Shown: positions 1,168-37,391 of the stretch, one piece after another
Layout of the letters: each line of letters starts with the position of its first letter
Numbering within the stretch: the stretch's first letter is position 1
Source: a virus
Lineage: Duplodnaviria; Caudoviricetes
Length of the DNA: 37,835 bases
Virus record (IMG/VR): IMGVR_UViG_3300020045_002070
Span: 1 to 37,835 of that record
Strand: one strand, 5' to 3'
The notes under the pieces: model-generated
What the model was told of the DNA's origin: nothing
What the model saw: only the letters and a program-made list of their open reading frames with translations
The model's database searches: none
Program-made: the position numbers and the translations under genes

Positions 1168-1457
1168 ATGTCAAAGTACATTAAAGAAGTGCTGGCCAGG
1201 TTGGAAGATCTTAAGACGGAAGAAGAGCTCTGTGTCAGGTCAGAAAAGATGTCTGGTATAGTCAAGGATACTTTGAATAACCTTGAAGAATCCGGCCATA
1301 TGCAGGTGGCTGGCTCAATAGACCTAGAAATAAGTATGTCTTCGTTGTACTACCATGTCTTTTCGGTGATGATGGTACTGATAAAGACTTCAATGATTTG
1401 ATTGACTATCATATCAAGTATCTAACCAAGATGTATATCTTTCCAGATATGAAGTAA
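1168..1457 (+). pseudogene. paralogue B of 374-646, frameshifted at T-run 1360-1363
   Basis: N-part ...ISMSSLYYHVF matches paralogue A ...ISMSSLFYHVF; homology continues in the -1 frame as FGDDGTDKDFNDLIDYHIKYLTKMYIFPDMK* (paralogue A: FNDLIDYHVKYLTKIYDIK*). Confidence 0.85.
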
Positions 1458-1491
1458 GATTATCAAACCCCTTAACAGAGGAGTCAGTATT

Positions 1492-1749
1492 ATGAGAGAG
1501 CACCAACAAGTTTTACCTCCTGCCAACTATATGTCCAAGGTAACCAGACAAATTTGTCTGGTTAGCCGGGCTATAGACTGTATCAATTATATAGACCCAA
1601 AACTAGATCCTGCAGTCCATAATTCTCGGCCAGAAGGACAAAATGAAAGTATCAGATCTTTAAAAGTTGAACTGGCTAGTCATCTATCAGAGTTGAAACT
1701 GTCTATTGAGATCCTTGAAACTATAATAGATAGTATCAAAGTTTACTAA
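1492..1749 (+). CDS. early hypothetical helical protein
   Basis: ORF with GAGGAG RBS. Confidence 0.75.
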   Translation: MREHQQVLPPANYMSKVTRQICLVSRAIDCINYIDPKLDPAVHNSRPEGQNESIRSLKVELASHLSELKLSIEILETIIDSIKVY

Positions 1750-1766
1750 CTTAGGAGTCTTGTATC

Positions 1767-1958
1767 ATGGAGATCCAACAGATTAAATATGTGGCTGAGG
1801 AGATCAACTCAACTACCCAGATTATTGAAAAGCTGTGCTTGAATATTACACATAGTGCTGACCAGGAGAGTACCCGTATCTACCTTATGAGAGATGAGCT
1901 CAGGGTTAACCTGGATACACTGACTGAGCAGTTTAAAATACTGGAGAGGTTAATATGA
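1767..1958 (+). CDS. early hypothetical helical protein, weakly similar to 1492-1749
   Basis: AGGAG RBS; C-terminus ESTRIYLMRDELRVNLDTLTEQFKILERLI resembles ESIRSLKVELASHLSELKLSIEILETII. Confidence 0.75.
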   Translation: MEIQQIKYVAEEINSTTQIIEKLCLNITHSADQESTRIYLMRDELRVNLDTLTEQFKILERLI

Positions 1959-2050
1959 CGCATTTATTGCTTGGCGTAATCTGTGGCTGCATAGTTGGTG
2001 CAGCTGTTGTCCTGTATGTTGTGGCTGAACTTTTTGATGAGGATATATAG
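1955..2050 (+). CDS. 31-aa single-TM membrane peptide (not in ORF track)
   Basis: MTHLLLGVICGCIVGAAVVLYVVAELFDEDI*; GGAGAGG RBS; ATGA overlap with upstream stop. Confidence 0.7.
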   Translation: MTHLLLGVICGCIVGAAVVLYVVAELFDEDI

Positions 2051-2221
2051 ATGGATAAGACAGACCGTGCAAGACTTACTTTGGCTATTCTCATGTCCAG
2101 TCAGTTAAGAAGAGCAAGACTGGCAGAGCAGCAAAGATTACAAGACAGTGCTACAGTTACATTGATGGTACTGTGCAGCACTATAATAGCCGCTCAGGTT
2201 GTCTGGGCATTGCTGAACTAA
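2051..2221 (+). CDS. 56-aa protein with C-terminal TM anchor (not in ORF track)
   Basis: MDKTDRARLTLAILMSSQLRRARLAEQQRLQDSATVTLMVLCSTIIAAQVVWALLN*; GAGGA RBS; starts right after the previous stop. Confidence 0.7.
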   Translation: MDKTDRARLTLAILMSSQLRRARLAEQQRLQDSATVTLMVLCSTIIAAQVVWALLN

Positions 2222-2228
2222 CTAACAA

Positions 2229-2256
2229 AGGCTTCTCCTTGACCAGGGAGAAGCCT
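2229..2256. terminator. stable hairpin at end of early cluster (terminator or boxB-like)
   Basis: AGGCTTCTCC-ttgaccag-GGAGAAGCCT 10-bp stem; no U-tract on +, short T-rich tail on -. Confidence 0.55.
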
Positions 2257-2268
2257 ATAACCCCACAA

Positions 2269-2280
2269 CGCTCTTTGAAA
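2269..2280 (+). promoter_or_regulatory. boxA-like element (copy 2)
   Basis: CGCTCTTTGAAA, 12 nt after the hairpin. Confidence 0.5.
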
Positions 2281-2339
2281 TTTTGTGAATTTTCACTATT
2301 TGGTTGACCAGAGTGGCAGCATTTAGCCAAATACCATAA

Positions 2340-2875
2340 GAGATTTAGTTTTGTGTTTTTGTAAAAGTTTGGAAATTTAGTTTTGTATAATACGGAATTT
2401 AAAGTCGTTACTTAAAAGGTATCCTGTATTTTATGAAACACAGAATACAGCTTTAGTATTGCAAATAATGGATAAGATAATACGTATTCTGTACAGATTT
2501 GGGAATGCGCAGATTAAAAAAGATAGTAATTTAAGATAGTTATATATATTATTGTATTTTGTATTTATATTTAAAAAATAATATTAATAGATAATAGTAT
2601 AAATGAGGTAAAAAGGTATAATTATATATATATAATAGGGAAAAACGCAATTTTACAAAATACAGAAAAAAGTGAAAAAGTGTAATCATTTCAGTTAGTT
2701 ACAGTATTCTGTATTTTTTTAATTCTGTAACGCGTTACAAAACTGACGTAACTAGCTGATTTTACTAATAAAGTCATTTTAGGTCATACAAAATTAATTT
2801 GTTAACAAAATCAAGTACTTATGTTTACCAGTTTTTAAGTATTTGATTTTATTAACAAATACAAATAATGTATTT
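2340..2875. other. putative replication origin: AT-rich non-coding region with iterated motifs and palindromes
   Basis: No ORF; repeats TATTCTGTA/TATTTTGTA in both orientations; palindrome TGTAACGCGTTACA 2726-2739; 25-bp IR 2797-2821/2836-2860; upstream of the primase-helicase operon. Confidence 0.5.
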
Positions 2876-2876
2876 G

Positions 2877-2905
2877 TTTACTTTTGTCTTAAAACGTGAT
2901 ACTCT
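2877..2905 (+). promoter_or_regulatory. sigma70-type promoter for replication operon
   Basis: TTTACT-17 bp-TACTCT; same -35 as the other phage promoters. Confidence 0.55.
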
Positions 2906-2987
2906 TATCACAATGAGCAATAACCCAAAAATGTCGTTCTTGGCGCTCTCACTGGCCAGGTGGCACTGACAACAAAGGAACACTTAA

Positions 2988-3134
2988 ATGCTTATGGACC
3001 TGGATTATGATGATTTTGACCTGGATAACAGCTCAACCATTACTGCTGAAACACATGATAAGTATCTTACCAACAGCGCCAGCGCAGACAATAGTTTCGA
3101 AGATGCTTTTGAAGCTGCTTGGAGGGACAGATGA
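2988..3134 (+). CDS. 48-aa highly acidic protein (not in ORF track)
   Basis: MLMDLDYDDFDLDNSSTITAETHDKYLTNSASADNSFEDAFEAAWRDR*; AAAGGA RBS; ATGA overlap with next gene. Confidence 0.7.
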   Translation: MLMDLDYDDFDLDNSSTITAETHDKYLTNSASADNSFEDAFEAAWRDR

Positions 3135-3433
3135 CCTCTATTAACCGACATGAGTTCCAACAACAAGCCCGTGAATGGTACGAGTTAAATAAGCTTTCAA
3201 AGGTAAAAAGTATTTGCACTTGCCCTATATGCGGTGCCACTTTTATCAAGAGAAACAAACTTCACACGTTTTGTACTAACTGGTACACTGACAAGTATCA
3301 TGACTGTAAGACCCAGTTTTGGAATGAAATGGATGAAGTCCGTCGGCGTCAAGCCAGAGAGCTTAAAGACTTAAACACATCAACAGGTATGCGTTGGCAC
3401 CAACAAATACACAGAGAGGAGGAAACAGCATGA
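3131..3433 (+). CDS. Cys-rich putative zinc-finger protein
   Basis: CPICG...FCT...DC; GGAGGG RBS before ATG 3131. Confidence 0.7.
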   Translation: MTSINRHEFQQQAREWYELNKLSKVKSICTCPICGATFIKRNKLHTFCTNWYTDKYHDCKTQFWNEMDEVRRRQARELKDLNTSTGMRWHQQIHREEETA

Positions 3434-3684
3434 AATGCGGACTTGGTAGACCCACCGAATTAACTGATGACCAATTGTATGTTGTCAAGATAGGGTACGC
3501 CAATAATATTCCTGCACCTGAAGTAGCACGTTATCTTAACGTATCAAGGCAAAGGATTTATTATTACTATAAACGGTTCAAGGCTGATAGGTATAAATGT
3601 ACACCGCCCCTTAGCCTATCAACCTTACTTGCTCAACACGCCAACACCAGTAACAACATAGCAGCAGAAGGCCTAACATGTTAA
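3430..3684 (+). CDS. stand-alone resolvase/Hin-type HTH DNA-binding protein
   Basis: GRPTELT arm plus APEVARYLNVSRQRIYYY HTH; GAGGAGG RBS; ATGA overlap. Confidence 0.7.
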   Translation: MKCGLGRPTELTDDQLYVVKIGYANNIPAPEVARYLNVSRQRIYYYYKRFKADRYKCTPPLSLSTLLAQHANTSNNIAAEGLTC

Positions 3685-6155
3685 CAATGGCTGCTTTAGA
3701 GCAGTGGACCGATTGTCTTAGTGATAATCACGGAAAACGTCCTCATTATTCTCCTGGTCAAGGTAAAGGTGTTATCTTGGCCAAGGCAATAGAGATGGCT
3801 AGCAGGTCTACACTATCTCCTAACTACGGATTTCTTTTCACTAAAGATGATCCGTATATTGGCATTGATGTCGACGTTGACCCTACAGGGAAGAGCCAGA
3901 ACGCTACTACAGAGATTCCACCTGAACTCTTGTTTTTCCTTAATAACAACCCCACGCATGCACATTACTCACCTTCTGGTAATGGCCTGCATCTCATTTA
4001 CAAGCTTGACCCAATTGCAGTCGCCAAGGTTAATTCTCTTAACATGAAACAGCGGGCGTGCAGACAAGCAGATGGCGCTCTGTTTAATGGTGATTGGCGT
4101 TGGGATAGCAGTTTCTTAACATTTACCCCTAACACATATAACACCTCAACGTCAACTCAAACCATTTCCACTATTGACTATGACACACTGGTCATGCTGA
4201 TAGGCGATCCAGTTCCCAGTTCGTTAGCCACACAGGTGGCACCTATTGTCGATATACGAACTGGGCTTAAGATGCAAGCCTATGTGCCTACTCTTACAGA
4301 CTTGGAACGAGTGCTTCAGGATGTACCATCAACTTTTAACCATCTGGCTAAGAAGGCCTGTAAGACGTTGAAACATTCTCAGCCTTCTACTAATTATGAA
4401 TATTGGGTACTCGTCGGCCAAGCGTGTGCCCACACAAGTCTTATGTTGCAGGCAACTGGGGCAGACACCACAGGGACAACTGGCACAACAGACATAAGCG
4501 ACATCGGGGAAGCCACTGAGGCCTTATTTGTCAATTGGTCTTCCCGTGATCCAGACTTTGTCTCGATAGAGGACGTCCAAACAAAATACCGCAGTCTTCT
4601 TGCGTCTACACAGACCAAGTTCTTTCTTGACACTGCTACCGCGACTTATAAAGTCTTGCTCACACTGGCCAGAGGGGCTATCTTGGACTTTCCAGTTCTT
4701 GTCGGCAAGGCTCTGTTACCTGACATGGGCTCAATCCAAAATGCCTTGTACCTTATGGATTATGAGGAACTAAGTGTTTGGAGTGACACTATGTCAGGTG
4801 GCTTCAGTATCAAGGGTCCAGAGGAGACCATATCAAAGTGGTTCAGGCCGCATCATAGCACCCATGTTGAGCCAGGTTGCAGCGTTACATTTGACGCGGG
4901 CTCACTTGACGTAGCGATGTTACCTTTCTTTCAGAACCGCTATAAACAGTCTATGTCGCCTGCGCAGGCTCGGTCCGCTTGTAGACAGCTGATGCTGACG
5001 GCACATCCCACGAATGCCTTTCGTGACTGGATAGACTCGAAGCCTTGGGATGGTGAGTCTCGACTTGAGGTGGTCTGCAATTCCATAGACTACGCAGACC
5101 ACATGAAACACAATGCTCCATTGTACCATTCGTACATTGAAAAGTCTTTGTTATCAATGATTGGCATTCACTACTGGCCAGAAGATCATCCTAAGATCCC
5201 TGCTATGCTCGTCTTAACTGGTCCACAACACACATACAAGTCTTCGTGGGCTGAATGGCTACTACCTATTGAGTTAAAGAATTATATGGGTATGGCCACT
5301 ACTGACGTCATTATAGCAGGTGGGACTGATCGTGATCGACTGCTCAGCACACGAGCTGTCCTCGTGATCAATGAATGCGAGACACTATTCATACCACGAT
5401 ACGAACAACGGATTAAATCTTCTGTTGACCAGGAGATCGTGACCTATCGTGACCTCTACATGAACACACCTGTGTCCAGACAACGGACAGCACTGATCAT
5501 AGGGACCACGAATAAACCTGATCTGTATACTGGTACAATGGGTACTCGCAAGATCTGGCAGATCCCTGTAAAGACGTGTAATTCGTACCTTATTAAAGAT
5601 TGTGACAAACAACAACTCTATGCCGAGATAAAGGCTCTCCTGGCCAAGAGGAAAGCTGAGAAACCTAATGAGCTTATCCAGCTAGCTTGGCAACAGTCAT
5701 TTGAGGAGAGACAACAAGTGGAGGAGATAAACCGCGAGTCTAAAGGATCTATGGGTATTGACGCTCTACTTGTGGAGATCTTTGGTGACCCTATAACTAC
5801 ACCACTCGATATCGAGGACTACAAAGGGGCACGCGGACTTGTTGTTCGCAAAGGCAATCCTTACTCTTTAGAAAACAAACCAAATGCTTGGACACTTACA
5901 CCACTATTACGCTTCATGCGCGATAGATTCCCAGATGACATTATAGATCGCCGTAGTCTACGTTATGCAGCTATCTCTTACTGTGAGTTATTCACACAAA
6001 GCAAACATGCTATTGTGCAGCCTTTTAAGAGTATCTCAAAAGCTGAGAGACTTGTATTCCGTGGTGTCCTGGAGATTTCTAAATCTGAGAAGTACTATCT
6101 ATTTCCTGCTATAGGACACACGCCAGACGAGAGTGCGTTCAGTGAAGTAGAGTAA
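3678..6155 (+). CDS. AEP primase-polymerase + PriCT + VirE/VapE-like helicase
   Basis: GFLFT..DPYIGIDVD and SPSGNGLH AEP motifs; YEYWVLVGQA..LFVNWS PriCT-2; WDGESRL, MLVLTGPQHTYKS, IIGTTN, GTRKIW VirE motifs. Confidence 0.85.
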   Translation: MLTMAALEQWTDCLSDNHGKRPHYSPGQGKGVILAKAIEMASRSTLSPNYGFLFTKDDPYIGIDVDVDPTGKSQNATTEIPPELLFFLNNNPTHAHYSPSGNGLHLIYKLDPIAVAKVNSLNMKQRACRQADGALFNGDWRWDSSFLTFTPNTYNTSTSTQTISTIDYDTLVMLIGDPVPSSLATQVAPIVDIRTGLKMQAYVPTLTDLERVLQDVPSTFNHLAKKACKTLKHSQPSTNYEYWVLVGQACAHTSLMLQATGADTTGTTGTTDISDIGEATEALFVNWSSRDPDFVSIEDVQTKYRSLLASTQTKFFLDTATATYKVLLTLARGAILDFPVLVGKALLPDMGSIQNALYLMDYEELSVWSDTMSGGFSIKGPEETISKWFRPHHSTHVEPGCSVTFDAGSLDVAMLPFFQNRYKQSMSPAQARSACRQLMLTAHPTNAFRDWIDSKPWDGESRLEVVCNSIDYADHMKHNAPLYHSYIEKSLLSMIGIHYWPEDHPKIPAMLVLTGPQHTYKSSWAEWLLPIELKNYMGMATTDVIIAGGTDRDRLLSTRAVLVINECETLFIPRYEQRIKSSVDQEIVTYRDLYMNTPVSRQRTALIIGTTNKPDLYTGTMGTRKIWQIPVKTCNSYLIKDCDKQQLYAEIKALLAKRKAEKPNELIQLAWQQSFEERQQVEEINRESKGSMGIDALLVEIFGDPITTPLDIEDYKGARGLVVRKGNPYSLENKPNAWTLTPLLRFMRDRFPDDIIDRRSLRYAAISYCELFTQSKHAIVQPFKSISKAERLVFRGVLEISKSEKYYLFPAIGHTPDESAFSEVE

Positions 6156-6195
6156 AATGCAGTAAAGACAAAATTAATAAGAGGCAAAATAAGTA

Positions 6196-6224
6196 TTTAC
6201 TTTGATAGCGAACTGTAGTATAAT
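6196..6224 (+). promoter_or_regulatory. sigma70-type middle promoter
   Basis: TTTACT-17-TATAAT; flanks GCAAAATAAGT and GTTTTTAA shared with the promoter at 8440. Confidence 0.8.
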
Positions 6225-6270
6225 GTTTTTAATGAGTGCGAAACAAAACCAATAAAACGAGGAGACGACC

Positions 6271-8384: not shown

Positions 8385-8439
8385 TAAATACAAAATGAAA
8401 ACGCAGCAAAACAAAAATGAAAACGCCGCAAAATAAGTG

Positions 8440-8468
8440 TGTACTTTGGTTTAAAAATGTGCTATAAT
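8440..8468 (+). promoter_or_regulatory. sigma70-type promoter with extended -10
   Basis: TGTACT-17-TATAAT preceded by TG; upstream tandem repeat AAAATGAAAACGC(A/C)GCAAAA. Confidence 0.8.
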
Positions 8469-8524
8469 GTTTTTAAAAGTGAATGTGAGAGCAACCAAAA
8501 CCCTAATGTTTAAAGGAGTCTAAA

Positions 8525-9126: not shown

Positions 9127-9486
9127 ATGGCACACGAGCACAAATTCTCATCTGGCAAGGTCCGCTATGATCTTGTTGACCCCGAAGCAATCCACGGAAT
9201 AGCGCTTGCCTTCACTCATGGCCAGGATAAAGGTTATGAAGAGTACTCATGGCAGAAGGTTCCTGCTGCTGAGTATGTAGGAGCGTATCAACGTCACATG
9301 CGAGAGCACCTCAGAGCACTGAAAACCAACAACATCAATTATGCGTTCGACAAAGAGTCAGGGTTGCTGCACATCGATCATGCTATGGCGTGCCTTAGCA
9401 TTCTTCGGTGGCACATTACCCAAAACAAGGTAGTTCAGAAACGGTTAGACAACAGGGAGGAAGCACATGAAAATTCAGACATATGA
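9127..9486 (+). CDS. DUF5664-like (dATP/dGTP diphosphohydrolase N-terminal domain) protein
   Basis: K..SGKVRYDLVDP..A.AFTHG..KGY..YSWQK..RH..DKESGLLHIDHAMACL signature. Confidence 0.8.
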   Translation: MAHEHKFSSGKVRYDLVDPEAIHGIALAFTHGQDKGYEEYSWQKVPAAEYVGAYQRHMREHLRALKTNNINYAFDKESGLLHIDHAMACLSILRWHITQNKVVQKRLDNREEAHENSDI

Positions 9487-10144
9487 AGACATCACTATCG
9501 AGGTTCTACGCTCAACACAGCAGCCTGCTAAGCTGGTTCACATGGCTGCACGACAGACGCAAGTTATGTGTCCTGCTGAGGGTGCTGAAGATCCTGCAAA
9601 GTTGATCGAGTTTCTGGTTAACTCCGGGCACCATAGCCCGCTGGAGCATGCCCATATAACTCTTCACCTACGTGGCTGCTCGAGATCTCTCCTGGCCCAG
9701 ATCACACGCCAGCGCACATTTAAATTTACGTCTTCAAGTCAGCATTTCCAGGACTCCAAAGACTATCCTTGTGTAGTCCATCAAGATCTTATTGGTTCAC
9801 AAAAGCATTTGATGGAGATCTATGATACTGCTTTCACGGCAGCGTACAAGGCCTACATTGATCTGATGCACGAGGGAGTTCCTAAAGAAGAAGCTCGGCA
9901 GGTCTTGCCAAATGCAGCTGCAGTAAACTTGATCGTCACAGCTGACGCCCGTAACATGATGTACTTCTTGATTCAACGGCGTTGCCAACGTAATGTTGAG
10001 GAAATGCAGATTGTTGCAGATGGCTTTTCAAAGATCTGCAAGGCTTGGTTTCCCGAGCTTTTCAAACTTGTAGGGCCTGACTGCATAATGACAGGTAAGT
10101 GTCATCAAGGATCCTTGATTGCACCGGAGTGCATGGGCGTATGA
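9467..10144 (+). CDS. thyX: FAD-dependent thymidylate synthase ThyX-like (atypical motif)
   Basis: GHHSPLEH, SRSLLAQITRQR-x7-S, EEARQVLPNA. Confidence 0.85.
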   Translation: MKIQTYEDITIEVLRSTQQPAKLVHMAARQTQVMCPAEGAEDPAKLIEFLVNSGHHSPLEHAHITLHLRGCSRSLLAQITRQRTFKFTSSSQHFQDSKDYPCVVHQDLIGSQKHLMEIYDTAFTAAYKAYIDLMHEGVPKEEARQVLPNAAAVNLIVTADARNMMYFLIQRRCQRNVEEMQIVADGFSKICKAWFPELFKLVGPDCIMTGKCHQGSLIAPECMGV

Positions 10145-10521
10145 AACAGATTGTAGCAACCCAGTTGGCCTATCAAATAGCTCTGGGCAATGGACCTGAC
10201 AGCTTTGATGGCCAGGAAGGTAGGATGCAGTACATACGTGATACTTGTCTTGCCCTGAACATAGAAGTTGCAGAGTTCCTGCAGGAGTTGCCATGGAAGC
10301 CTTGGCGTCCTGCGTATAGGCAACCCTGCAATATAGACAAAGCTGCAGAAGAGTTAGTAGATGTAATTATCTTTGCCCTCAATTTGTGGATAACTCTTGG
10401 TTGGGCTCAACCTGGCCAGAGTGGAGCAACTTTAGAGCAGATGATAAAGCAGAAGCAAAAGACGAACAGTGAACGACTAACAAGTGGATACAATAAAACT
10501 AAAACAGGAGAAACAAAATGA
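10141..10521 (+). CDS. all-alpha (MazG/dimeric dUTPase-like) dNTP pyrophosphatase
   Basis: LNIEVAEFLQELPWKPW...EELVDVIIF; ATGA overlap at 10141. Confidence 0.8.
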   Translation: MKQIVATQLAYQIALGNGPDSFDGQEGRMQYIRDTCLALNIEVAEFLQELPWKPWRPAYRQPCNIDKAAEELVDVIIFALNLWITLGWAQPGQSGATLEQMIKQKQKTNSERLTSGYNKTKTGETK

Positions 10522-25342: not shown

Positions 25343-26319
25343 TAGTATCCCTCCGTCCAGTAGAGAAGTGCAAAACCTATACCACCCACACCAGCAGTAG
25401 GACCACCACCTCCGCCACCGCCAAGACCTCCTGAACCACCCATAGATGCTCCACCCCCTCCACCTCCTCCTAATCCACCAGCACCCCCATAGCTACCACC
25501 ACCACCTCCGCCGCCACCAAGACCTCCTGAACCACCAGTACCACCCCCACCGCCACCTCCACCAGGCCCACCAGATGAACCTACGGATGCATAATAACCA
25601 CCACCACCATCCAACCTCTTGGATGGGATATCAAGGATACTCCCTGTACCACCTGCTGATGTAGCTGGAATATCTGTCCCCGCTGAGACTGCACCAAAAG
25701 GTCCACCACCCATAGTGGCAGAGTTTGAAGACGTAGATCCTCCACCACCACTTGAAGATCCAATACTGTTTTTTAGTCCACCACCACCGGATTGGGTTGC
25801 TGTCGCCGAAGATCCTCCCCAGCCCCCTCCGCCGGCAATATTAGTAGCCCCTGAGTTTCCACCATTCCCCCATGGAGATCCACTACCACCACCACCTGTA
25901 TTGGTAGAAGCCCCAGATGCCCCACCAGAAGCGGTAAACGTTTTACGCAAACCAGCAATAGCCGTGCCTGTTCCACCTGCTGCACTTGCAGTTGATGTTG
26001 ATGTGGTTCCACCCGTGGCAGTGAGTATGTTACCAAACGATGATGTCCCTGCTACTCCCCCAATTGTAATCGTTGGCAGTAACTGACCCGGAACAACGTC
26101 AATTATGGCTTGAGCAAAACCTCCTCCACCACCACCAGAGCCAGTGTCCTTACCATTGCCGCCACCCCCAAAAACCATAGCAAGCATCTGAAAAACATTC
26201 TGGGGAACCACCTCTCCAGAAGTTGTGGTGGTGATCATTTTGTAGTTGAGCCATTCAGGGGGTTCTATTCTTACTGCCTTGTTTGGGCCAGTCGGGAAAC
26301 CTAAGTTAGATCCGTTCAT
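25342..26319 (-). CDS. glycine-rich tail fibre/receptor-binding protein
   Basis: VFGGGG.G..GGGGGGF..ITIG..GTSSFG glycine-rich domain; GGxGGLGGGGGGG repeats. Confidence 0.7.
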   Translation of the reverse strand: MNGSNLGFPTGPNKAVRIEPPEWLNYKMITTTTSGEVVPQNVFQMLAMVFGGGGNGKDTGSGGGGGGFAQAIIDVVPGQLLPTITIGGVAGTSSFGNILTATGGTTSTSTASAAGGTGTAIAGLRKTFTASGGASGASTNTGGGGSGSPWGNGGNSGATNIAGGGGWGGSSATATQSGGGGLKNSIGSSSGGGGSTSSNSATMGGGPFGAVSAGTDIPATSAGGTGSILDIPSKRLDGGGGYYASVGSSGGPGGGGGGGGTGGSGGLGGGGGGGGSYGGAGGLGGGGGGGASMGGSGGLGGGGGGGPTAGVGGIGFALLYWTEGY

Positions 26320-27304: not shown

Positions 27305-29244
27305 TAGTCCTCCATAGGTCTATAACGTATAGTAAGACCATCTATATAAGCAGGCTTACCAATCATCTTAATATCATCTAAGTGCACCTGATAAGCGAAG
27401 CACCTAAAACCGAGGCGTATGACCAGGGGGACACCTGCTGGGTCTATAATGACATCCATGTCATCTATAACAGCGTCACCTAGATCATCAATTATTACAT
27501 CGTCATGTAGAGCAGACGCTCCTTGCCACCTATATGTCTCTTCAAAAGTGTCATTATCTTTATAGCACACAAAGTCATAACTTACACCTGTTCTAGAGTC
27601 AAGAAGCACACGTGCTTCTAAGACGTCTATCAACCTGAATGAAGACTGAAAATACTTCGTCTTCATGCTAATGTAAAATGGCAGGCCATCATCTTTAGTT
27701 AACAAGTCATTTGGTGCATAGACAAAACCATCTTCTGCGCCTACTACAATATCGTCCCACTGGCCTAAACAAGTTGGGACGAAGTTAAACTGAAATTCTG
27801 ACCAGGGATAGCGAACCCTATTGATTCCTTCTGTTGGTGCTTTAGTGTGGGCAACAAATATCTTGCCACCTAATACCACCCACAACTGGCCACGATCAAT
27901 GTAGTAACCTGTGTAAGCTTCAGAGGTCCATAGCTTTTCTATCTGGTCATCTATTGCTACCGACTCTGAATACGTTCGTACGTCCCCGTATAGATTAACA
28001 CCTGTAAGACTTGATACTCCTCCACGACTTAACATCCACACATCATTAAGTATTTCTGCTGTCATCTTTGGTGCTGACCAGATGGGTTGCCTTAAGTCGG
28101 TTAACACAAAGTCAGTGCCTGTACCAGAGAGCTGAAGTAGATAGGGCGTTTCTTCAGCTCCAAAAATAAAGAGTGTGCCAAAGTAAGACACTACTGAACC
28201 AATAGGGTAGGTGTCTTTATGATTATCAAGTGTAGTTAAATAGCCTGCTTGACCAGCTGTTGACCAATCGAAAGGCGCAAAGTTACTATAGAACAGAGTA
28301 CCTTTGTTAGTGTCATCTCCATAGGCCCATAGTCGTCTATCATGGACCAGAAGATTACTACACTTTGGAGGAAGACCAGGTGAGACACCACAAATAGGTA
28401 CTGAACTATCACCAGTATACCACTTAATATAGTTTGCAACATTGTATGTACTCATAGCAAGACGAACATAATAAGCAGTGTTTGGTGCTAGCTCATGCAC
28501 AACTGTCATGTTTGCTACTTCAAAGTCTCCAGGGTCCGGAGCAACAAATGGAGCCTGCACTTCTAAAGCACCATAAGCCATTTGTACATTATCTGATGTT
28601 CGGTAGATACTTAGTACTATGTTACCTGTACCACCTGTACCAACTCGGCCTACTTTAATCTCAAGCTTAGTTGGTGGCATTGTATATCCTACTGGCCAGG
28701 AGGGTGTTGTAAAATTAACTTGGTTTGTTGCTGCAGCAGTGTAATTAATAGCACCAGATATACTGTCTCCTCTGTTATCAAAGAGCCCTGGGGTTCCACC
28801 ATCCCAAGCTAACTTAAGTACATCTGTGCTATCTATGTACTTAAGGTACCCCCCATCAGCTACCATAGCTTTGCCACCAAAACTTACAATACTCGCAGGT
28901 CCTTCAGCTGTTCCTAAGGCTGTTGCTGTTCCAGTGAAGTCTATCTTACGAATTGAGTTGTCTACAGACTGCGCTAAATAAACAACCTTATCCTCTATAC
29001 TGCAAGAGGCTAAGGTTATTACTTTTCCAATAGATGTGTGGTTTAGCTTTTTCATACCTGCCCGAGTTTGTAGCTGCCCACCTCTATTTACTTGCAGGTT
29101 TATACATTCTACTAACTCAGTGTCTTGTACCATCGAGGCTGGTACAACTGTGCAAAGGCCTTGAGGAAACCCGAGAAACGATACATTCTCGATAGCTGCA
29201 GCAGGCCTCGCTTGTCGTGCTATACTTTCAAATTTAGATCCCAT
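27304..29244 (-). CDS. tail nozzle/DNA stabilisation protein (P22 gp10/T7 tubular B-like)
   Basis: ~646 aa beta-rich; LVECINL..GQLQTRAG, RRLW..LFYS; position; GAGGAAGG RBS before ATG 29244. Confidence 0.65.
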   Translation of the reverse strand: MGSKFESIARQARPAAAIENVSFLGFPQGLCTVVPASMVQDTELVECINLQVNRGGQLQTRAGMKKLNHTSIGKVITLASCSIEDKVVYLAQSVDNSIRKIDFTGTATALGTAEGPASIVSFGGKAMVADGGYLKYIDSTDVLKLAWDGGTPGLFDNRGDSISGAINYTAAATNQVNFTTPSWPVGYTMPPTKLEIKVGRVGTGGTGNIVLSIYRTSDNVQMAYGALEVQAPFVAPDPGDFEVANMTVVHELAPNTAYYVRLAMSTYNVANYIKWYTGDSSVPICGVSPGLPPKCSNLLVHDRRLWAYGDDTNKGTLFYSNFAPFDWSTAGQAGYLTTLDNHKDTYPIGSVVSYFGTLFIFGAEETPYLLQLSGTGTDFVLTDLRQPIWSAPKMTAEILNDVWMLSRGGVSSLTGVNLYGDVRTYSESVAIDDQIEKLWTSEAYTGYYIDRGQLWVVLGGKIFVAHTKAPTEGINRVRYPWSEFQFNFVPTCLGQWDDIVVGAEDGFVYAPNDLLTKDDGLPFYISMKTKYFQSSFRLIDVLEARVLLDSRTGVSYDFVCYKDNDTFEETYRWQGASALHDDVIIDDLGDAVIDDMDVIIDPAGVPLVIRLGFRCFAYQVHLDDIKMIGKPAYIDGLTIRYRPMED

Positions 29245-29863
29245 AGAATAGCCTTCCTCTGTTTGTACGGCGTATTCTTCCGTGGGAGTACGTAACCAAG
29301 GCTGCTTCAGTCCATGCATTTTCAGCTTGCGCTATGGCTACACCTAGATTCCTTTCTAAAATTGTCAAGCACTCTAGCACCAGAGACCGCAGTATCGCAC
29401 GGTTCCACAGGCCCAGCCAAGGAAAATCATAAGTATCCAAAGTGGCTAAAGTTGGTGCAACAAAACTATTAGGGAACATGAAATTAACAGTGTACACTGC
29501 ATTAGGAGTAGGATAAAATTTTACTTGGCCATCCCCTGTTAACGCGAAGAAGCGGGGTATGTTTGCTAATTCAGTTTCAACAGGCTCTACTACTAACTGT
29601 AAAGGAGTTGCTATATCTGCAATCCATACACTGCCATCTGTTATGTTTTTCACATTACCTAGCGCATAAGTATCAACGCCTTCCTCAGTAGTTATCGAGG
29701 AAGGCTCTAATACCAGGTTTGACTCTAACCGACGAAGCTCTTCAAAGACTTGATCGAGTATTTCATTGGTCAAGTCTAGCAAGTCTGAATCAGTGAACTC
29801 ATTCTTGTATTGATCTTTAACACGCAAACGAGTACTCGTGAATGTGTCTAATAGAGTTCCCAT
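29234..29863 (-). CDS. head-tail adaptor/tail tubular protein A-like
   Basis: ~200 aa, FYPTPNAVYTV motif, position after capsid genes. Confidence 0.6.
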   Translation of the reverse strand: MGTLLDTFTSTRLRVKDQYKNEFTDSDLLDLTNEILDQVFEELRRLESNLVLEPSSITTEEGVDTYALGNVKNITDGSVWIADIATPLQLVVEPVETELANIPRFFALTGDGQVKFYPTPNAVYTVNFMFPNSFVAPTLATLDTYDFPWLGLWNRAILRSLVLECLTILERNLGVAIAQAENAWTEAALVTYSHGRIRRTNRGRLFYGI

Positions 29864-29871
29864 GTTACTCC

Positions 29872-30279
29872 TTAGAGGATACTACCAACCTCTACGATTG
29901 AGTAGTTCGGTCGGTGACTTTCTGCGTACAGCTCACCTGATGCAGAGTTTTTCATGATCCTAAAGCCTGGGAATTGCCGCATAGCCTCTTCACGAGGATT
30001 ACTGCTACTGTAGATCCCAGACTCTGCAGGAATGTCAATTCGATTACGCTCAACAGCATCTTTGAGAATGCTAATCTGAACCATTGAAAGTGTTACTTCC
30101 TGGCCAGGAAAGAATGCTGCCCTGCCATTTACGTCACCCATGTCATTTACGACTATTTCAAGGTTCTGATTCTTCTCATCAACATTAAGCCTGTTAACAA
30201 CAACCCTCTTGAAGATCTGTCGTGGGTCTGTGTTAGGTTCCTCTGCTTGTACTGCTGCAGGTGCTTTCTGGTCTGCCAT
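29872..30279 (-). CDS. hypothetical virion-associated protein
   Basis: GGAG RBS; follows the capsid gene. Confidence 0.65.
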   Translation of the reverse strand: MADQKAPAAVQAEEPNTDPRQIFKRVVVNRLNVDEKNQNLEIVVNDMGDVNGRAAFFPGQEVTLSMVQISILKDAVERNRIDIPAESGIYSSSNPREEAMRQFPGFRIMKNSASGELYAESHRPNYSIVEVGSIL

Positions 30280-30326: not shown

Positions 30327-31349
30327 TTACAGTGCGGATACAGCGTGTTCGTAACGTACGAGAAAGTCATCATTGAGAATCTTCAGTGTTGTGTAGGCTT
30401 TCCATCCTGAAGTGTTTCTCTGGTTGAGAGCATCACTGGTACCGGAGTTCTGAGCTTTCTTGATAATGTTTTCGATACCACCTTTCTGCAAAGGCACAAT
30501 ACCAAAAGCATTCCTGGCCAGGATGAGGGTCTGGTAGATATCCAGGTTTGTTCCTGAAGTTGAAACGTTCGTACCTTTGACAGCACCTGCATCAGGTACA
30601 AGACCGGCATTCGTGGTTGTGATCAATCGGATTCCTTTGATCTCACCAATCTCGGTATCCATTACTTCAGTCTGCGAAGCATACTGCTCAACAGGAGTGA
30701 AGCCTGTGAGAGCTTCCCAGTCCTGCCTGCAATCTGTATGTGTGATACCGATGAAAGCCGCACGAAGTGGAGTAGTTGAAACCTTAACACCCGCGTTAAC
30801 TTGCTCACGAATGGGCTTTGCATTTCTCTTTTCAAGGCCTCTGACAATGGACTGTACATCTTTGAGCTGAACGGGTTTTGCTGTCAGCAACCTTGTAGCC
30901 ACGCCATCAGCGTACCGTACAGTTGTACCAGCAAGAAGGATGTTCCTGTGGAGAGTATCAATGGTAAGACCTGCCTGCTCGCCAAGAAGATCTCCAGCTT
31001 CCATGAGAATAGGGTCAAGGCCCAAGTCAAGAAGCTTATCAGTGATCATGATATAATCACCATACTGCGCGATTGTAGCATAGATCTCTGAAGATGAAAG
31101 AACCTTACCAGCCGGAGTTACACCCTCAGTGAGGGGAGTTGTGTTAACGGCCAGGGAGGCATACCTTCTGAAGGTGATGCGATCTCCAGAGTTCTTTGGC
31201 AGTGGTCTTGACTGCCCAAACTTACCATAGAGCAGAACAGGTATCGCACGCTCAAGGAGATTACGATCATAATGACCCTGAATATTTATTGTCTGATCCG
31301 CTGTCCCAGTAGCATTAACCGGGTTTGTTGCAGGATTGATTGAAGCCAT
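30327..31349 (-). CDS. major capsid protein, N4-gp56 family
   Basis: FGQSRPLPKNSGDRITFRRY, LTEGVTP, QYGDY..ITD, EIG, SDALNQR..GWK. Confidence 0.9.
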   Translation of the reverse strand: MASINPATNPVNATGTADQTINIQGHYDRNLLERAIPVLLYGKFGQSRPLPKNSGDRITFRRYASLAVNTTPLTEGVTPAGKVLSSSEIYATIAQYGDYIMITDKLLDLGLDPILMEAGDLLGEQAGLTIDTLHRNILLAGTTVRYADGVATRLLTAKPVQLKDVQSIVRGLEKRNAKPIREQVNAGVKVSTTPLRAAFIGITHTDCRQDWEALTGFTPVEQYASQTEVMDTEIGEIKGIRLITTTNAGLVPDAGAVKGTNVSTSGTNLDIYQTLILARNAFGIVPLQKGGIENIIKKAQNSGTSDALNQRNTSGWKAYTTLKILNDDFLVRYEHAVSAL

Positions 31350-31351
31350 GA

Positions 31352-32161
31352 TTAATATCCTTTCACTTTACTTACAAGTTTATCAAAGTCTTTGGAAGAT
31401 AACTCCCAAGCACTTTTATCTGATTTTGATTGCCGAGGTGGAGCACCTCCGCCAGACCTTGCACGAAAAGTTTGCTTAGGCTTAGAGCTTGTCGTAAGTA
31501 CCTTTGCTTTAACAGTATCATAAAACTCTTCCAGCTTGTTTATGTCCCTGTTAATCTTTTCATACTCAGTTACTGTGAGGTTGTTTGCGTGTTCCCCTAA
31601 AACTGACAGAACCTTTTCGTAGTTTTCAGGGTCTTTCGTTTTAAAGAATTCAATTATCTCCTGGCCAGGTGAGACTGGTGCAACCTGCTTGTACTGCTGA
31701 GCCTTTTGACGTCTTACAAGGTTATCTTCGAGCCAAGCTTCCTCGGTATCAAAGTCCGCAAGTTTAGACGTCTTAGGCTTTACACGTTCAGCAACATGGT
31801 CATTAACGAGCTTACCTATTTCTGGGTCACTCTCGATTAGAGTTACCAGCTTTTTATGAGGTGCAATACGATTCATGTCAGTGTGGTAACTGAAGCCTTT
31901 CTGCGCCAGTTCAGTCATCTTAGCTCTTGTCAGATTATGTTTTTCACCTTTGTACATAATCTCAAACAACTGCTCAGGCTCGGCTTCAGGCTCGGCTTCA
32001 GGCTCGGCTTCAGGCTCGGCTTCAGGCTCGGCTTCAGGCTCGGCTTCAGGCTCGGGCTTGGGCTCAGGCTCGGGCTCAGGCTCAACACCTAATAAGCCTG
32101 ACACACTTTTCTCGTATTCTTCTGTACTCATATCCATTGGATCAACTTCTGTTTCTGGCAT
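31352..32161 (-). CDS. capsid scaffolding protein
   Basis: Acidic EPEA repeats, ELAQKGFSY, C-terminal WELSSKDF; upstream of the capsid gene. Confidence 0.75.
   Translation of the reverse strand: MPETEVDPMDMSTEEYEKSVSGLLGVEPEPEPEPKPEPEAEPEAEPEAEPEAEPEAEPEAEPEQLFEIMYKGEKHNLTRAKMTELAQKGFSYHTDMNRIAPHKKLVTLIESDPEIGKLVNDHVAERVKPKTSKLADFDTEEAWLEDNLVRRQKAQQYKQVAPVSPGQEIIEFFKTKDPENYEKVLSVLGEHANNLTVTEYEKINRDINKLEEFYDTVKAKVLTTSSKPKQTFRARSGGGAPPRQSKSDKSAWELSSKDFDKLVSKVKGY
31974..32083. repeat. 12-bp tandem repeat (TCAGGCTCGGCT x6 plus degenerate 6-mers)
   Basis: Encodes the (EPEA)n linker of the scaffold. Confidence 0.95.
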
Positions 32162-32390
32162 GCTCACTCCTTGCTGCTAAGAGATTGTACTCATTAGTGT
32201 ACTCGTCAAGTTCTTTCTCGAGTTTTGTTATGGCCAAGAGATATGCACGGTTGTCGAGGAGCTCCTCGTGTGCACATGTTTTCATTGCTTCTATTGTCTC
32301 TATTACTTGAACAGTGAAGAACTTATCAAGCAGCTTATGTAGCGTGCTCGCAGCTCTTGCTGTCTCTAATGCTTTATTTAACCTTTCCAC
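32142..32390 (-). CDS. small hypothetical protein after portal
   Basis: GTG start with GGAGG RBS. Confidence 0.6.
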   Translation of the reverse strand: MERLNKALETARAASTLHKLLDKFFTVQVIETIEAMKTCAHEELLDNRAYLLAITKLEKELDEYTNEYNLLAARSEHARNRS

Positions 32391-34666: not shown

Positions 34667-34674
34667 AGTCTCAC

Positions 34675-35067
34675 TTATCGTATATACAATTTTATCTCTG
34701 TAGACTTTTGAAGTAATTTTTTAAATTGCTCAAAAGCTTGTGTCGACCGCTCTAACGTTATTGCATGTGAATTTCGTGTGACTATTTGACCAAGAAGAAT
34801 GCAACCTTCAGTGTCTGTTATAGTGTTCCCTTTATGAAATAGAATGCCAGATCTATCTTTAACGTCTTCAACTAAGTACGAATCTTTAAACTTTGACGAC
34901 GCATACTTAACAACATTGTACTGGCCAGTGGGGATACAAGATACATTTTTCTGGTTTTCTCGCCAAGGCCTTTCGAGTGTTAGACAAACAAATTGACCGT
35001 CTATCAGTAGAGCACCCACAACACCATGGCGACTGGACTCAAGTCTCGTCAAATCTATTAAAGTCAT
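34675..35067 (-). CDS. DUF5675 family putative endolysin
   Basis: CLTLERPW, SCIPTGQY, RSGILFHKGN..DTEGCILLG. Confidence 0.85.
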   Translation of the reverse strand: MTLIDLTRLESSRHGVVGALLIDGQFVCLTLERPWRENQKNVSCIPTGQYNVVKYASSKFKDSYLVEDVKDRSGILFHKGNTITDTEGCILLGQIVTRNSHAITLERSTQAFEQFKKLLQKSTEIKLYIR

Positions 35068-36563
35068 ACACTCACACGTGCCCGTTTATTAAGGATCTGC
35101 TCTCTCGCATTTTGGTGACCATAACCTTGCTCATTCGACACCAGACCTTTGATTATAGCTTGCATACCATACCTATAAGAAGATGCTCCGTGTTCATGCT
35201 CGTTATGTAATGGGCTATCACTAAAGCAGTCCATCTTAGCATTCCAAGCTTTCACATAATTGCCAAGGTGCATAAGACCTTTCTCACATTTTAAATCAAA
35301 GTAACAACGGTTGAAACCTGACCGGACAATATTGATTCCTGTCATAATGTCTAACCGAGGAAGCTGAATAAAGTATAGACCAAGTTTAGCTGCCATCTCC
35401 TGGCGGGTTCGGCCAGATGAGAGCTCGCGTGCGCCAATATCGTGGGGCGCAAAATGCTGACCATAGGTATACCCAAAGCGCTCTCTCTTGGCCTCAAGCA
35501 TAGCCTTGTAATGTGGAAAACCTTCTTCTGAATTTTCGTAGTAATCTATCCAGTGAATCTCTTGGCCTACTAACTGAAAAAACCAAATCGTCATTTCATC
35601 TGATATACCAAGATCCCAACAGGTATGCACAAGAGCAGCTTCGTCATGTGGTACACTGCAGCCTGCACGTTTGTCAAGACGTGCACGTGCAAGTTGTTTA
35701 GCATAGTACGAACCTATCAACGCCGCCTCGAAGGCTTCCTCAGGAGTAGATGGAAACTCTCGCTTCATCTCATCTTGTTGTGTCTCGTACTTTTTAGTGT
35801 ACCAGTTTTTCTGCTCAATAGACAAGATGATCCCAAAGTTTTGCTCAATCTCGTCGTAGTACTCAAGCAATTCCTGTGGATGATTTACATTGTCAGTCAT
35901 CTGGTACTCAGGGTGTCTATGCCAGGGAAAGAAAAAGAACTTATAATCAAGAGGCGTCAAGGTCTCTTTAGCTCTCTGCTTCGCCATGGCCAGGATAGAA
36001 AACTTATAGAAGTCGCCTGTTCGGCCTTCCGCTGTTGATTCTATAAAGACATAGTTGCCTTGTTCTACTGTATTAAGAGCGCCTGTTCTAATCTCTTTCG
36101 CCTTCTCAGGGAACCGTGCACAGATCTTGCCGTGTTCTGAGATATGCAAATACTGCAAAGTAGTTGAACGCATTGATGTGCCAACTGAAATAGAGGAGTT
36201 GTTATCAAATTTCAACTCTTTTGCAGTGCTTGTATCGGCAGGGCGGGCCATACGTATAGCCTCAGGAAGCTGATCGTACGCATACTTTATCTTATTACGG
36301 AAAAACTTTTCTGCGTCCTCTTTGTTGTGTGCGATAATTCCACAGTTGGTATTGCTGTTGAACATCGCGGTGTCTAAAAAGAAGATACACAAGAAGGTGG
36401 TCATGCCCAACTGCCGAGCTTTCAGCAGAATATTGCAATACCACATGCCCTCAAGCAAGGCTAGCTGTGCCCAATTCGGTTTGAACTGAACGCGCTTACC
36501 ATGTTTGTCGACAATGTAGTAGAGGTTATTCAACCGCCACCACCTACTTTGGAGTCTCTGCAT
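35064..36563 (-). CDS. terL: terminase large subunit
   Basis: LKARQLGMTT, LHISEHG, ESTAEG, WDLGISD, PHD nuclease motifs. Confidence 0.95.
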   Translation of the reverse strand: MQRLQSRWWRLNNLYYIVDKHGKRVQFKPNWAQLALLEGMWYCNILLKARQLGMTTFLCIFFLDTAMFNSNTNCGIIAHNKEDAEKFFRNKIKYAYDQLPEAIRMARPADTSTAKELKFDNNSSISVGTSMRSTTLQYLHISEHGKICARFPEKAKEIRTGALNTVEQGNYVFIESTAEGRTGDFYKFSILAMAKQRAKETLTPLDYKFFFFPWHRHPEYQMTDNVNHPQELLEYYDEIEQNFGIILSIEQKNWYTKKYETQQDEMKREFPSTPEEAFEAALIGSYYAKQLARARLDKRAGCSVPHDEAALVHTCWDLGISDEMTIWFFQLVGQEIHWIDYYENSEEGFPHYKAMLEAKRERFGYTYGQHFAPHDIGARELSSGRTRQEMAAKLGLYFIQLPRLDIMTGINIVRSGFNRCYFDLKCEKGLMHLGNYVKAWNAKMDCFSDSPLHNEHEHGASSYRYGMQAIIKGLVSNEQGYGHQNAREQILNKRARVSV

Positions 36564-36718
36564 TATTTGTGTTTGCTTTGGTATTGACCAAGGAGAGTCT
36601 TGGCCAGGGAGAGGGCTGAGTTGACAACTAACTGAGTAACAGAGTTGCTCTTGATGGGTAACATGCCAACCACCTCAGAGGCAATCGCGAAGCATAAAAC
36701 TAATAGGTCAGGTGACAT
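36563..36718 (-). CDS. 51-aa small membrane (holin-like) protein (not in ORF track)
   Basis: MSPDLLVLCFAIASEVVGMLPIKSNSVTQLVVNSALSLAKTLLGQYQSKHK*; AAGGA RBS; TAATG coupling to terL. Confidence 0.75.
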   Translation of the reverse strand: MSPDLLVLCFAIASEVVGMLPIKSNSVTQLVVNSALSLAKTLLGQYQSKHK

Positions 36719-36749
36719 GGTAAGTCCTTGTTGTTGGTTAGGTTATGAG

Positions 36750-36817
36750 GCTCGACCAGGAGGGAGTCAGGTTCCTGGTCGAGCGGATACGCACAGGGAA
36801 GGAGGACCGGCGTGCGC
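36750..36817 (-). ncRNA. candidate structured RNA (two hairpins with C-rich loops)
   Basis: GCTCGACCAGGA/TCCTGGTCGAGC 12-bp stem (36750-36784) and CGCAC/GTGCG stem; minus-strand loops contain CTCCC and CCTCCTTCCC. Confidence 0.35.
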
Positions 36818-36839
36818 TGGGAGAACAGTGTAATAGGTG

Positions 36840-37391
36840 CTACAGGTCATCCGGGTCATCCGCAGGTAGAGATCGCCCGCGACCGTCAAGCTGGTCTAAC
36901 ACTTGAGCAAGACCAGATGATTTGAGTAAAGCCTCGATCTTCTTGTCAGCCAAGGCTGGCGTAGCTATAGCCTCGTGGAGTAGCGCCTGTTTGTCTAGTA
37001 ACTTTGAATAAGCCGTGACAATGCGCGCCAGGTCTTGAGACGCTCCGTCTCGCCCAGAATCGTATACCTTTAAAGTATCGTCAATGGCTGTCACGACAGA
37101 ATCCTCAATGCTCATCAGTTTAGAGAATTGCTTGATTGCCCGTCGTGTCATTAGCGTGGTGAGGCGCATCCTACCACGTTTATAGTAAGCGTTGACTTCT
37201 TCTTCAGAGGCCTCTTGGCCAGGTAAGAGGACCTGAACCCAAGATTCTTGTTTAACCAGGGCCTCAAGATCCCGAACAAATATACCAAGATCTCGGCAAA
37301 TCTCGGGAACTGATTCACCAACAACCTCGTATCTGAATCGTATCTCTTCTATGTCTACCACAGGGCTCTCCCAGTTAAAAATATTATCCAT
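36840..37391 (-). CDS. putative terminase small subunit
   Basis: N-terminal HTH-like IRFRYEVVGESVPEICRDLGI, helical body; first late gene; the longer ORF start lies upstream of the promoter, so ATG 37391 is preferred. Confidence 0.6.
   Translation of the reverse strand: MDNIFNWESPVVDIEEIRFRYEVVGESVPEICRDLGIFVRDLEALVKQESWVQVLLPGQEASEEEVNAYYKRGRMRLTTLMTRRAIKQFSKLMSIEDSVVTAIDDTLKVYDSGRDGASQDLARIVTAYSKLLDKQALLHEAIATPALADKKIEALLKSSGLAQVLDQLDGRGRSLPADDPDDL

Follow-up and report, generated by a model that had tools for sequence, protein, structure and literature searches.

A two-fold symmetric TGGCCA site iterated along a phage genome, and its likeness to the highly iterated palindromes of cyanobacteria

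The viral record IMGVR_UViG_3300020045_002070 (Duplodnaviria; Caudoviricetes), analysed here over its whole length of 37,835 bases and referred to as the window, is classed as linear, with a completeness estimate of ~71% and a G+C content of 43.8%. The palindromic hexamer TGGCCA occurs 49 times in the window, i.e., once per 772 bases, at the centre of a larger site with two-fold symmetry. At a probability of about 0.5, we consider that the phage lineage keeps a ~20-bp TGGCCA-centred site per ~0.8 kb as a dispersed recognition site on duplex DNA, which would be maintained by selection and read by a dimeric protein, in a manner similar to the highly iterated palindromes (HIPs) of cyanobacteria.

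Enrichment, anatomy and spacing of the site

The excess of TGGCCA is 3–7 fold, depending on the null model. The expected count is 6.9 at zero order, 9.7 and 13.8 under first- and second-order Markov models, respectively, and 16.3±3.2 in 1000 within-gene synonymous-codon shuffles, none of which reaches 49; dinucleotide shuffles yield a mean of 9.44, with a standard deviation of 3.03 and a largest value of 20. The 8-mer CTGGCCAG is present 20 times, versus 3.0 in the synonymous shuffles (0 of 1000 reach 20), and the perfect 10-mer CCTGGCCAGG 5 times, versus 0.72 in the synonymous shuffles (1 of 1000 reaches 5) and 0.02 in the dinucleotide shuffles (0 of 100). Copies of the 10-mer with a single mismatch number 23, compared to 5.05 in the synonymous shuffles, and this count too is reached by none of the 1000. 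When all hexamers are ranked against the synonymous shuffle, CTGGCC/GGCCAG (87 versus 26, z 12.9) and TGGCCA (z 10.2) are the strongest two, and with TGGCCA masked no GGCC-like word is found near the top of the ranking. The synonymous-shuffle null is imperfect, in that many unrelated short words score z 5–8 under it; therefore weight is given to the largest effects only. A preliminary description of the window had reported five perfect 10-mers (at 23790, 24892, 30099, 30513 and 31660), about 20 single-mismatch copies, ~45–50 TGGCCA cores and ~43% GC. Exactly these five perfect copies are found, all 18 of the mismatched positions that it named are among the 23, and the other two figures agree with the counted and measured values. 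The loss of enrichment under an amino-acid-preserving shuffle, which it had raised as a possibility, is not observed.

The sites are located as follows.

TGGCCA starts 1–25: 399, 1193, 2953, 3778, 4666, 5175, 5293, 5641, 6873, 6879, 7351, 7769, 8164, 9219, 10209, 10413, 10985, 11890, 12394, 13282, 14463, 15195, 17084, 18244, 18834
TGGCCA starts 26–49: 18926, 20622, 21166, 21557, 21961, 23792, 24411, 24894, 27045, 27887, 28693, 29526, 30101, 30515, 31662, 32231, 32913, 33672, 33962, 34203, 34922, 35987, 36601, 37216
23790–23799: perfect CCTGGCCAGG in gene 23311–24534 (minus strand), frame 2, read as L-P-G-Q-V
24892–24901: perfect CCTGGCCAGG with TT..AT flanks in gene 24545–24910 (minus strand)
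30099–30108: perfect CCTGGCCAGG within the 14-bp palindrome TTCCTGGCCAGGAA (30097–30110) in gene 29872–30279 (minus strand)
30513–30522: perfect CCTGGCCAGG in the major capsid gene (minus strand), frame 1, read as I-L-A-R-N; the aligned place in the related contig L006 (see below) is CTTGCAAAAA
31660–31669: perfect CCTGGCCAGG in gene 31352–32167 (minus strand), one of two positions common to the window and L006
6873–6884: the sole adjacent TGGCCA pair, TGGCCATGGCCA, read as W-P-W-P
2953–2958: the sole TGGCCA outside called open reading frames (ORFs), ACTGGCCAGG, in the ORF-poor stretch 2308–2987

TGGCCA sites are present in every reading frame and in both arms of the genome, with 8 in frame 0 (W-P), 19 in frame 1 (L/M-A-x), 21 in frame 2 (x-G-Q) and a single intergenic site at 2953; the frame-2 count includes site 29526, assigned by hand within the SU10-type adaptor ORF, and is 20 without that ORF. 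The protein sequences allow TGGCCA in 146 contexts, 47 of which hold it, versus 12.2 expected from codon usage. Occupancy is complete for W-P (8/8), and amounts to 19/84 in frame 1 and 20/54 in frame 2. The codons at these sites are rare, GCC representing 15% of the alanine codons and GGC 26% of the glycine codons. In addition, the permissive peptide contexts themselves are in excess (146 versus 107.8±9.9 in amino-acid-order shuffles), and the alignment with L006 shows that TGGCCA sites arise by amino-acid changes as well as by silent changes. These data support the conclusion that TGGCCA is a frame-independent signal at the level of the DNA, for which codon usage and peptide content are an insufficient explanation, in line with the view that the preliminary description had taken from the occurrence of the motif in both arms and all three frames.

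Outward from the dyad the half-site reads CCAGGRnRR, and the full site is a two-fold symmetric stretch of ~18–20 bp, yyyyCC-TGGCCA-GGrrrr, with flanks that are pyrimidine-rich on the left and purine-rich on the right. The preference is significant at each of the flank positions 4, 5, 6, 8 and 9 from the centre (chi-square >16.3), where C is depleted. It is identical across all three frame classes, and is therefore a property of the DNA. In nearly all one-mismatch 10-mers (22/23) the core is intact and the mismatch lies in the outer two positions on either side, and none differs within GGCC; 14 of the 22 flank variants represent C>T or G>A changes. The flanks of each TGGCCA site do not pair better with each other than flanks exchanged between sites, and folding with own flanks is slightly weaker than with swapped flanks, both with RNA parameters (−3.92 versus −4.36±0.24) and with DNA parameters (−1.44 versus −1.70±0.12). 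As the flanks lack stem pairing, we take the site to be read as duplex DNA and not as a hairpin. A near-cognate, GCTGACCAGGAGA-like word recurs at 823–846, 1845–1878, 5412–5436, 15621–15645 and 28071–28094; in the form TGACCAGG it has 10 copies versus 3.9 expected. These words are possibly decayed or weaker versions of the TGGCCA site.

The sites are spaced more evenly than expected by chance. The coefficient of variation (CV) of the gaps between neighbouring TGGCCA words is 0.62, versus 0.97±0.13 for uniform random positions (P 0.0006) and 0.90±0.12 for 47 sites drawn from the 146 permissive contexts (P 0.0009). This evenness stems mainly from a shortage of short gaps, only 5 being below 250 bp versus 10.9 expected (P 0.012). 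Site density varies little between the two arms and the A+T-rich early region.

Relatives, host search and known systems

Scans for relatives yielded L005 only with the capsid protein, 80 loci with the large terminase (TerL), of which L006 alone is close, and two remote matches with the portal protein in metagenomes; the PolA scan gave no relatives, and no close cultured relatives of the phage were found. The sole near relative, L006, is an 8.2-kb viral contig with amino-acid identities of 72% for TerL, 73% for the portal and 76% for the capsid. It contains 7 TGGCCA words, whereas synonymous shuffles of L006 itself give 1.85±1.25 (P 0.0015). No enrichment of TGGCCA is observed in the more distant relative L005 (capsid 51% identity) or in the 78 other TerL relatives. 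The five genes that can be aligned contain 8 sites in the window and 6 in L006, and 2 positions coincide; with 2 of the 8 window sites shared, the sites were therefore gained independently. At the non-shared window sites, three L006 partners are one letter off (TGGCTA once, TGGTCA twice) and the rest are unrelated, and there is no insertion at window sites relative to L006. The comparison thus points to a force that acts in the lineage of the window and L006, has lasted through ~30% nucleotide divergence and continues to create new sites.

Several other observations were made among the viral sequences. L006 contains four extra ORFs at 1590–3741 (80, 394, 128 and 113 amino acids; no Pfam match), between the DUF5675 and portal genes, which are absent from the window. 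One sequencing run labelled as a microbial mat metagenome holds 44 short contigs that are 80–99% like the window. Scanning viral contigs with a 14-mer gave 120 matching stretches, which is close to the chance expectation. Many distant TerL relatives (L020, L025/L026, L066, L068, L070, L073 and L077–L081) are top-ranked for differing palindromic hexamers, i.e., CTGCAG, ATCGAT, CAGCTG, CGCGCG and TCGCGA, their scores being crude zero-order z values of 7–13.

Three viral contigs, G001, G005 and G003, first looked enriched for TGGCCA. G001 and G005 turned out to be as enriched, or more so, for other palindromes (CAGCTG, CTGCAG, ACCGGT and others), and no genes are common to the window and either of them. 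Because several palindromes are enriched at once, the two were withdrawn as support for a shared host. The 40.6-kb phage G001 (L206/L207) has 0 copies of all six CTAG-bearing palindromic hexamers, together with an approximately five-fold excess of each of CAGCTG, CTGCAG, ACCGGT, TCCGGA, GGATCC and TGGCCA. It is weakly akin to Bacteroidota phages, a kinship that gave no lead.

For the host search, sparse samples of genomes were screened with the 10-mer in Chloroflexota and with the 8-mer in Bacteroidota, Cyanobacteriota and Gammaproteobacteria. The best genomes contain 178 copies of the 10-mer per 1.8 Mb (Chloroflexota), and 341 per 5.5 Mb (Bacteroidota), 568 per 2.7 Mb (Cyanobacteriota) and 371 per 2.5 Mb (Gammaproteobacteria) of the 8-mer. 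The density in the phage, one CTGGCCAG per 1.9 kb, is reached by none of the sampled genomes. In 10 cyanobacterial genomes, picked for the top 8-mer counts or count-to-control ratios, TGGCCA is compositional, with observed-to-expected ratios of ~0.5–1.6 (second-order Markov). A protein atlas search with ThyX gave no hint of the host.

A symmetrised 16-mer scan of bacterial and archaeal genomes at first appeared to point to the Dehalococcoidia/Chloroflexi, which account for about half of the 128 matches listed, and five of these genomes contain 52–178 copies of CCTGGCCAGG, versus 0–8 of a reversed control word. As hosts the Dehalococcoidia are nevertheless unlikely, their genomes having 55–69% G+C and the word being the core of a conserved, dispersed repeat of ~75 nt instead of being present as in-frame copies. 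This repeat occurs in both orientations, with a 24-nt perfect palindrome, ccccCTTCCTGGCCAGGAAGgggg, at its core and conserved arms (L215–L217, L227, L246, L283, L284, L290 and others in G006; also G008–G010), and from its sequence looks like an element of the repetitive extragenic palindrome (REP) or miniature inverted-repeat transposable element (MITE) type, or a small-RNA element, common to several genomes. A REP/MITE-like nature was rejected for the phage motif, the copies of which share only ~20 bp of degenerate flanks and lie, with one exception, within genes.

The closest known system is formed by HIP1 and the alternate HIPs of cyanobacteria, with differences in carrier, word and flanks. 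Like HIP1 (GCGATCGC), the phage word is a short G+C-rich palindrome that occurs about once per kb in coding DNA of all frames, is not explained by codon or peptide use and shows non-random spacing. According to Elhai (2015, PMC4390886), HIPs occur approximately once per 1000 bases and the one-off variants of HIP1 are also biased to the outermost positions. The likeness to HIP1 drawn in the preliminary description is thus borne out by both density and the location of one-off variants. Unlike HIP1, the phage word is carried by a virus instead of a cyanobacterial chromosome, prefers symmetric flanks over 20 bp and is without a cognate methylase in the window (~71% of the genome); TGGCCA itself does not occur in the text of PMC4390886. 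According to Xu et al. (2018, PMC5861425), HIP1 is enriched 15–300 fold, compared to 3–7 fold for the phage word, and its positions are conserved, whereas those in the phage, with 8 sites tested, are not above background. A literature search, conducted mostly without subscription journals, found no published over-representation of TGGCCA or iterated palindrome in a phage. Two cyanobacterial sequences illustrate the known words: in the first 20 kb of L349 (G1092) GGATCC occurs 63 times, 8.2 times the first-order Markov expectation, and the first 20 kb of L345 (G837) contains 42 HIP1. The former is an example of an alternate HIP and the latter of the classic HIP.

The Anabaena phage A-4L (L350, NC_024358), of which the host genus is HIP1-rich, contains 0 HIP1, 0 GATC (157 expected), 0 GGCC (93 expected) and 0 copies of many other palindromic hexamers. 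As A-4L is without HIP1, a phage need not mirror the iterated palindrome of its host. A-4L, a podovirus of ~42 kb, shares with the present phage the two-arm layout and a single palindromic hexamer in strong excess (GTTAAC, 77 versus 33.8±4.5 in protein-preserving shuffles). In contrast to TGGCCA, GTTAAC in A-4L lacks a flank preference and is randomly spaced (CV 1.12), in a genome from which GATC, GGCC and numerous other palindromes have been eliminated; its excess may be a different phenomenon.

In Escherichia coli, CCWGG is over-represented through Dcm methylation and Vsr very-short-patch repair. The phage 10-mer consists of CCTGG followed by CCAGG, and the 8-mer joins CTGG and CCAG, words that are favoured by that repair. 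However, outside TGGCCA those words are at expectation in the phage, near-cognate words are not depleted, and no dcm or vsr is seen in the window. The DNA uptake sequences of Pasteurellaceae and Neisseriaceae and the Chi sites are likewise short words with a density of about one per kb; they are asymmetric and orientation-dependent. The phage word shares with them its density, its spread through genes and its fairly even spacing, but it is palindromic with symmetric flanks.

Gene content and further features of the window

The genome is organized in two arms, the principal elements of which are listed below.

Plus-strand arm, to ~16.8 kb: replication and nucleotide genes
Minus-strand arm: structural genes, encoding a 1475-aa protein, the major capsid protein, SU10-type adaptor and portal proteins, and the large terminase
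756–1043, plus strand: small early ORF with a weak ArsR-type helix-turn-helix match (PF01022, E 3e-4, 21 bits, below the curated cut-off of 22)
3394–3684, plus strand: small ORF with a weak HTH_23 match (PF13384, E 5e-4, 20.3 bits, below the curated cut-off of 24.6)
3678–6155: primase-helicase
29234–29863: SU10-type adaptor ORF
30327–31349, minus strand: major capsid gene

The replication genes comprise a VapE-type primase-helicase, a DUF2800 nuclease, a Gp2.5/Enc34-type single-strand binding protein, a family A polymerase, a ligase and an SNF2 helicase. The nucleotide-metabolism set, at 9127–10521 and 16378–16797, includes a dATP/dGTP diphosphohydrolase N-terminal domain (PF18909), ThyX, a dUTPase_2/MazG-like protein and a dCMP deaminase. 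This set could serve the remodelling of the deoxynucleotide pool or the production of a modified base; neither a PurZ-like gene nor one for a hydroxymethylase was seen in the window. In agreement with the statement in the preliminary description that the phage encodes no methyltransferase, none is found among the 50 ORFs scanned against Pfam, and PF00145 has no six-frame match in the 37.8 kb that represent ~71% of the genome. Neither tRNA genes nor Rfam families are present in the window.

Two intergenic copies of a 79-nt sequence, at 6154–6232 and 8398–8476, are 75% alike and end in a sigma-70-like TTGATA ... TATAAT arrangement, and a 31-nt inverted pair (690–720 and 1059–1089, 97% complementary) flanks ORF 756–1043. 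These elements are probably phage promoters or operators. Further repeats are a 12-nt tandem repeat at 31950–32099, in the gene adjoining the capsid gene, a 198-nt tandem duplication at 24121–24516, in a DUF4214-bearing gene, and Gly-rich repeats at 25381–25608, in gene 25342–26319.

Possible readers of the site and alternative explanations

A two-fold symmetry extending over 20 bp is what a dimer would encounter on double-stranded DNA, and the site would accordingly suit a dimeric DNA-binding or DNA-modifying protein. Each site would serve its own neighbourhood of ~0.5–1 kb, which would account for the rarity of close neighbours, and selection would maintain the density while the positions turn over between relatives. 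The high occupancy of permissive contexts, the use of rare codons, the shift in protein sequence, the symmetric footprint without a stem, the few close neighbours and the turnover of positions fit a site kept by selection, and fit poorly to an unselected repair bias. The preliminary description had placed the origin of the motif either in a HIP-type process of the host or in a dispersed binding, uptake or self-marking signal. A binding or self-marking signal fits the symmetric flanks and the even spacing, whereas a host process is not shown, the signature being absent from every sampled genome.

As to the nature of the reader, the analogy with HIP1 and its CGATCG/GATC methylases may slightly favour a host system that is specific for TGGCCA and linked to cytosine methylation over a protein encoded by the phage. 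TGGCCA is called as 5-methylcytosine in a marine viral genome, with 13/15 sites modified (PMC8919816), and is N4-methylcytosine in Acinetobacter baumannii A118 (PMC10287943). The slight lean to the host arises because TGGCCA is a proven target of cytosine methylation and because the excess of TGGTCA/TGACCA suits a methylated, deamination-prone C. A phage-encoded reader is nearly as likely because the signal is so lineage-bound.

Several points weigh against a selected recognition site. In the comparison of motif positions that the preliminary description had proposed for related phages, 2 of 8 sites are shared with L006, which does not exceed the hexamer identity of the background, 0.120 (P 0.25, with low power at ~70% nucleotide identity). 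TGGCCA is not special in G001 and G005, in which several palindromes are enriched together. No host genome with the TGGCCA signature was found among ~1,600 sampled (401 each of Chloroflexota, Bacteroidota, Cyanobacteriota and Gammaproteobacteria), and the over-representation by which the preliminary description had hoped to nominate a host therefore nominates none. No reader protein can be named, and neither a methyltransferase nor a Vsr-like gene is seen in the window. Finally, the argument for selection is indirect, as it draws on how the sites are spaced and how many contexts they occupy in a single genome, together with one relative of 8 kb, and the enrichment is modest beside the values given for HIP1 in PMC5861425.

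It is conceivable, if doubtful, that the iterated palindrome is virus-borne and kept for the phage's own use, as ~50 evenly placed, symmetric 20-bp sites with a phage-encoded reader, for instance for the start of the lagging strand on either strand or for marking of self DNA. Somewhat unlikely is the allied explanation of a phage-autonomous signal that is read either by the primase-helicase or, as a genome-wide operator, by a small helix-turn-helix protein. For the primase-helicase, the palindrome would offer a site on whichever strand lags, at what the spacing suggests is about the distance between Okazaki fragments. The confinement of the signature to the window and L006, to the exclusion of L005, the other TerL relatives and all sampled bacterial genomes, is consistent with such a signal. 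A site required on both strands would be well served by the two-fold symmetry and by the even spacing near 0.8 kb, and the phage carries its own replication set. ORFs 756–1043 and 3394–3684 might, judging from their sequences, be two candidate phage-encoded readers, but both helix-turn-helix matches fall below the Pfam cut-offs.

An unselected by-product of methylation-linked short-patch repair, of the Dcm/Vsr kind or as in Elhai's repair model for HIP1, is unlikely. A host TGGCCA/CCWGG methylase and a T:G mismatch endonuclease would then convert near-cognate words during phage replication. The documented methylation of TGGCCA (PMC8919816, PMC10287943), the C>T or G>A nature of 14 of the 22 flank variants, and the abundance of the inner-C transition product TGGTCA/TGACCA (44 versus 26) agree with this model, and the enrichment of the window and L006 at different positions is as a continuing mutational drive would give. 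Such a drive should deplete the converted words, but all 9 words that are one letter away from TGGCCA escape depletion, and TGGTCA/TGACCA even exceeds its expectation. With TGGCCA masked, CCAG/CTGG (325 versus 318.2, z 0.5), CCWGG (74 versus 71.9, z 0.4) and GGCC (91 versus 87.3, z 0.5) are at expectation, and CTAGG has 27 versus 33.8. The remark in the preliminary description that the 10-mer consists of two CCWGG sites sharing a GGCC is thus true of the letters, but CCWGG is not the driver. Moreover, independent conversions would produce neither the deficit of close neighbours nor the symmetric flank preference, and the window shows no gene resembling dcm or vsr.

The remaining explanations are far less probable. 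Restriction-site sparing, in which a host enzyme purges GGCC while T-flanked copies survive through a shielding modified base, is very improbable; the nucleotide-metabolism cluster could hint at modified bases, but GGCC is not purged (140 versus 103.7 expected, and at expectation with TGGCCA masked as given above) and TGGCCA is not merely spared, being three-fold above the protein-preserving null. It is equally improbable that the palindromes are kept for a hairpin or cruciform structure that they form in DNA or mRNA. The palindromic core and the pyrimidine-rich 5′ and purine-rich 3′ flanks would allow such structures, but swapped flanks are at least as complementary as own flanks, which fold less stably (P(null<=obs) 0.977 with RNA and 0.993 with DNA parameters), and other palindromic hexamers have surroundings with a mean folding energy that is at least as good. 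Least probable is an artefact of codon usage, dipeptide content or base composition, since, although the climb of the expectation through the successive nulls indicates that part of the raw excess is compositional, the observed count lies 10 standard deviations above the strictest null, with all three frames and rare codons in use.

The question of what HIPs do has stood since the description of HIP1 in 1995, and the well-studied cases all come from cellular genomes of several megabases, in which it is difficult to tell selection, repair bias and methylation apart. The phage carries a signal of this kind in a genome of a few tens of kilobases, and its symmetric footprint, few close neighbours and turnover of positions point to selection for a site that a protein reads, rather than to a by-product of repair. 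If the reader were found, in the phage or in its host, the phage would become a small, tractable model for HIP-type words, and the TGGCCA motif could act as a fingerprint that pairs the phage lineage with its host. Should the palindrome be kept for the phage's own use, its ~50 kb genome would be the smallest known system in which to settle the function of a HIP-type word at the bench.

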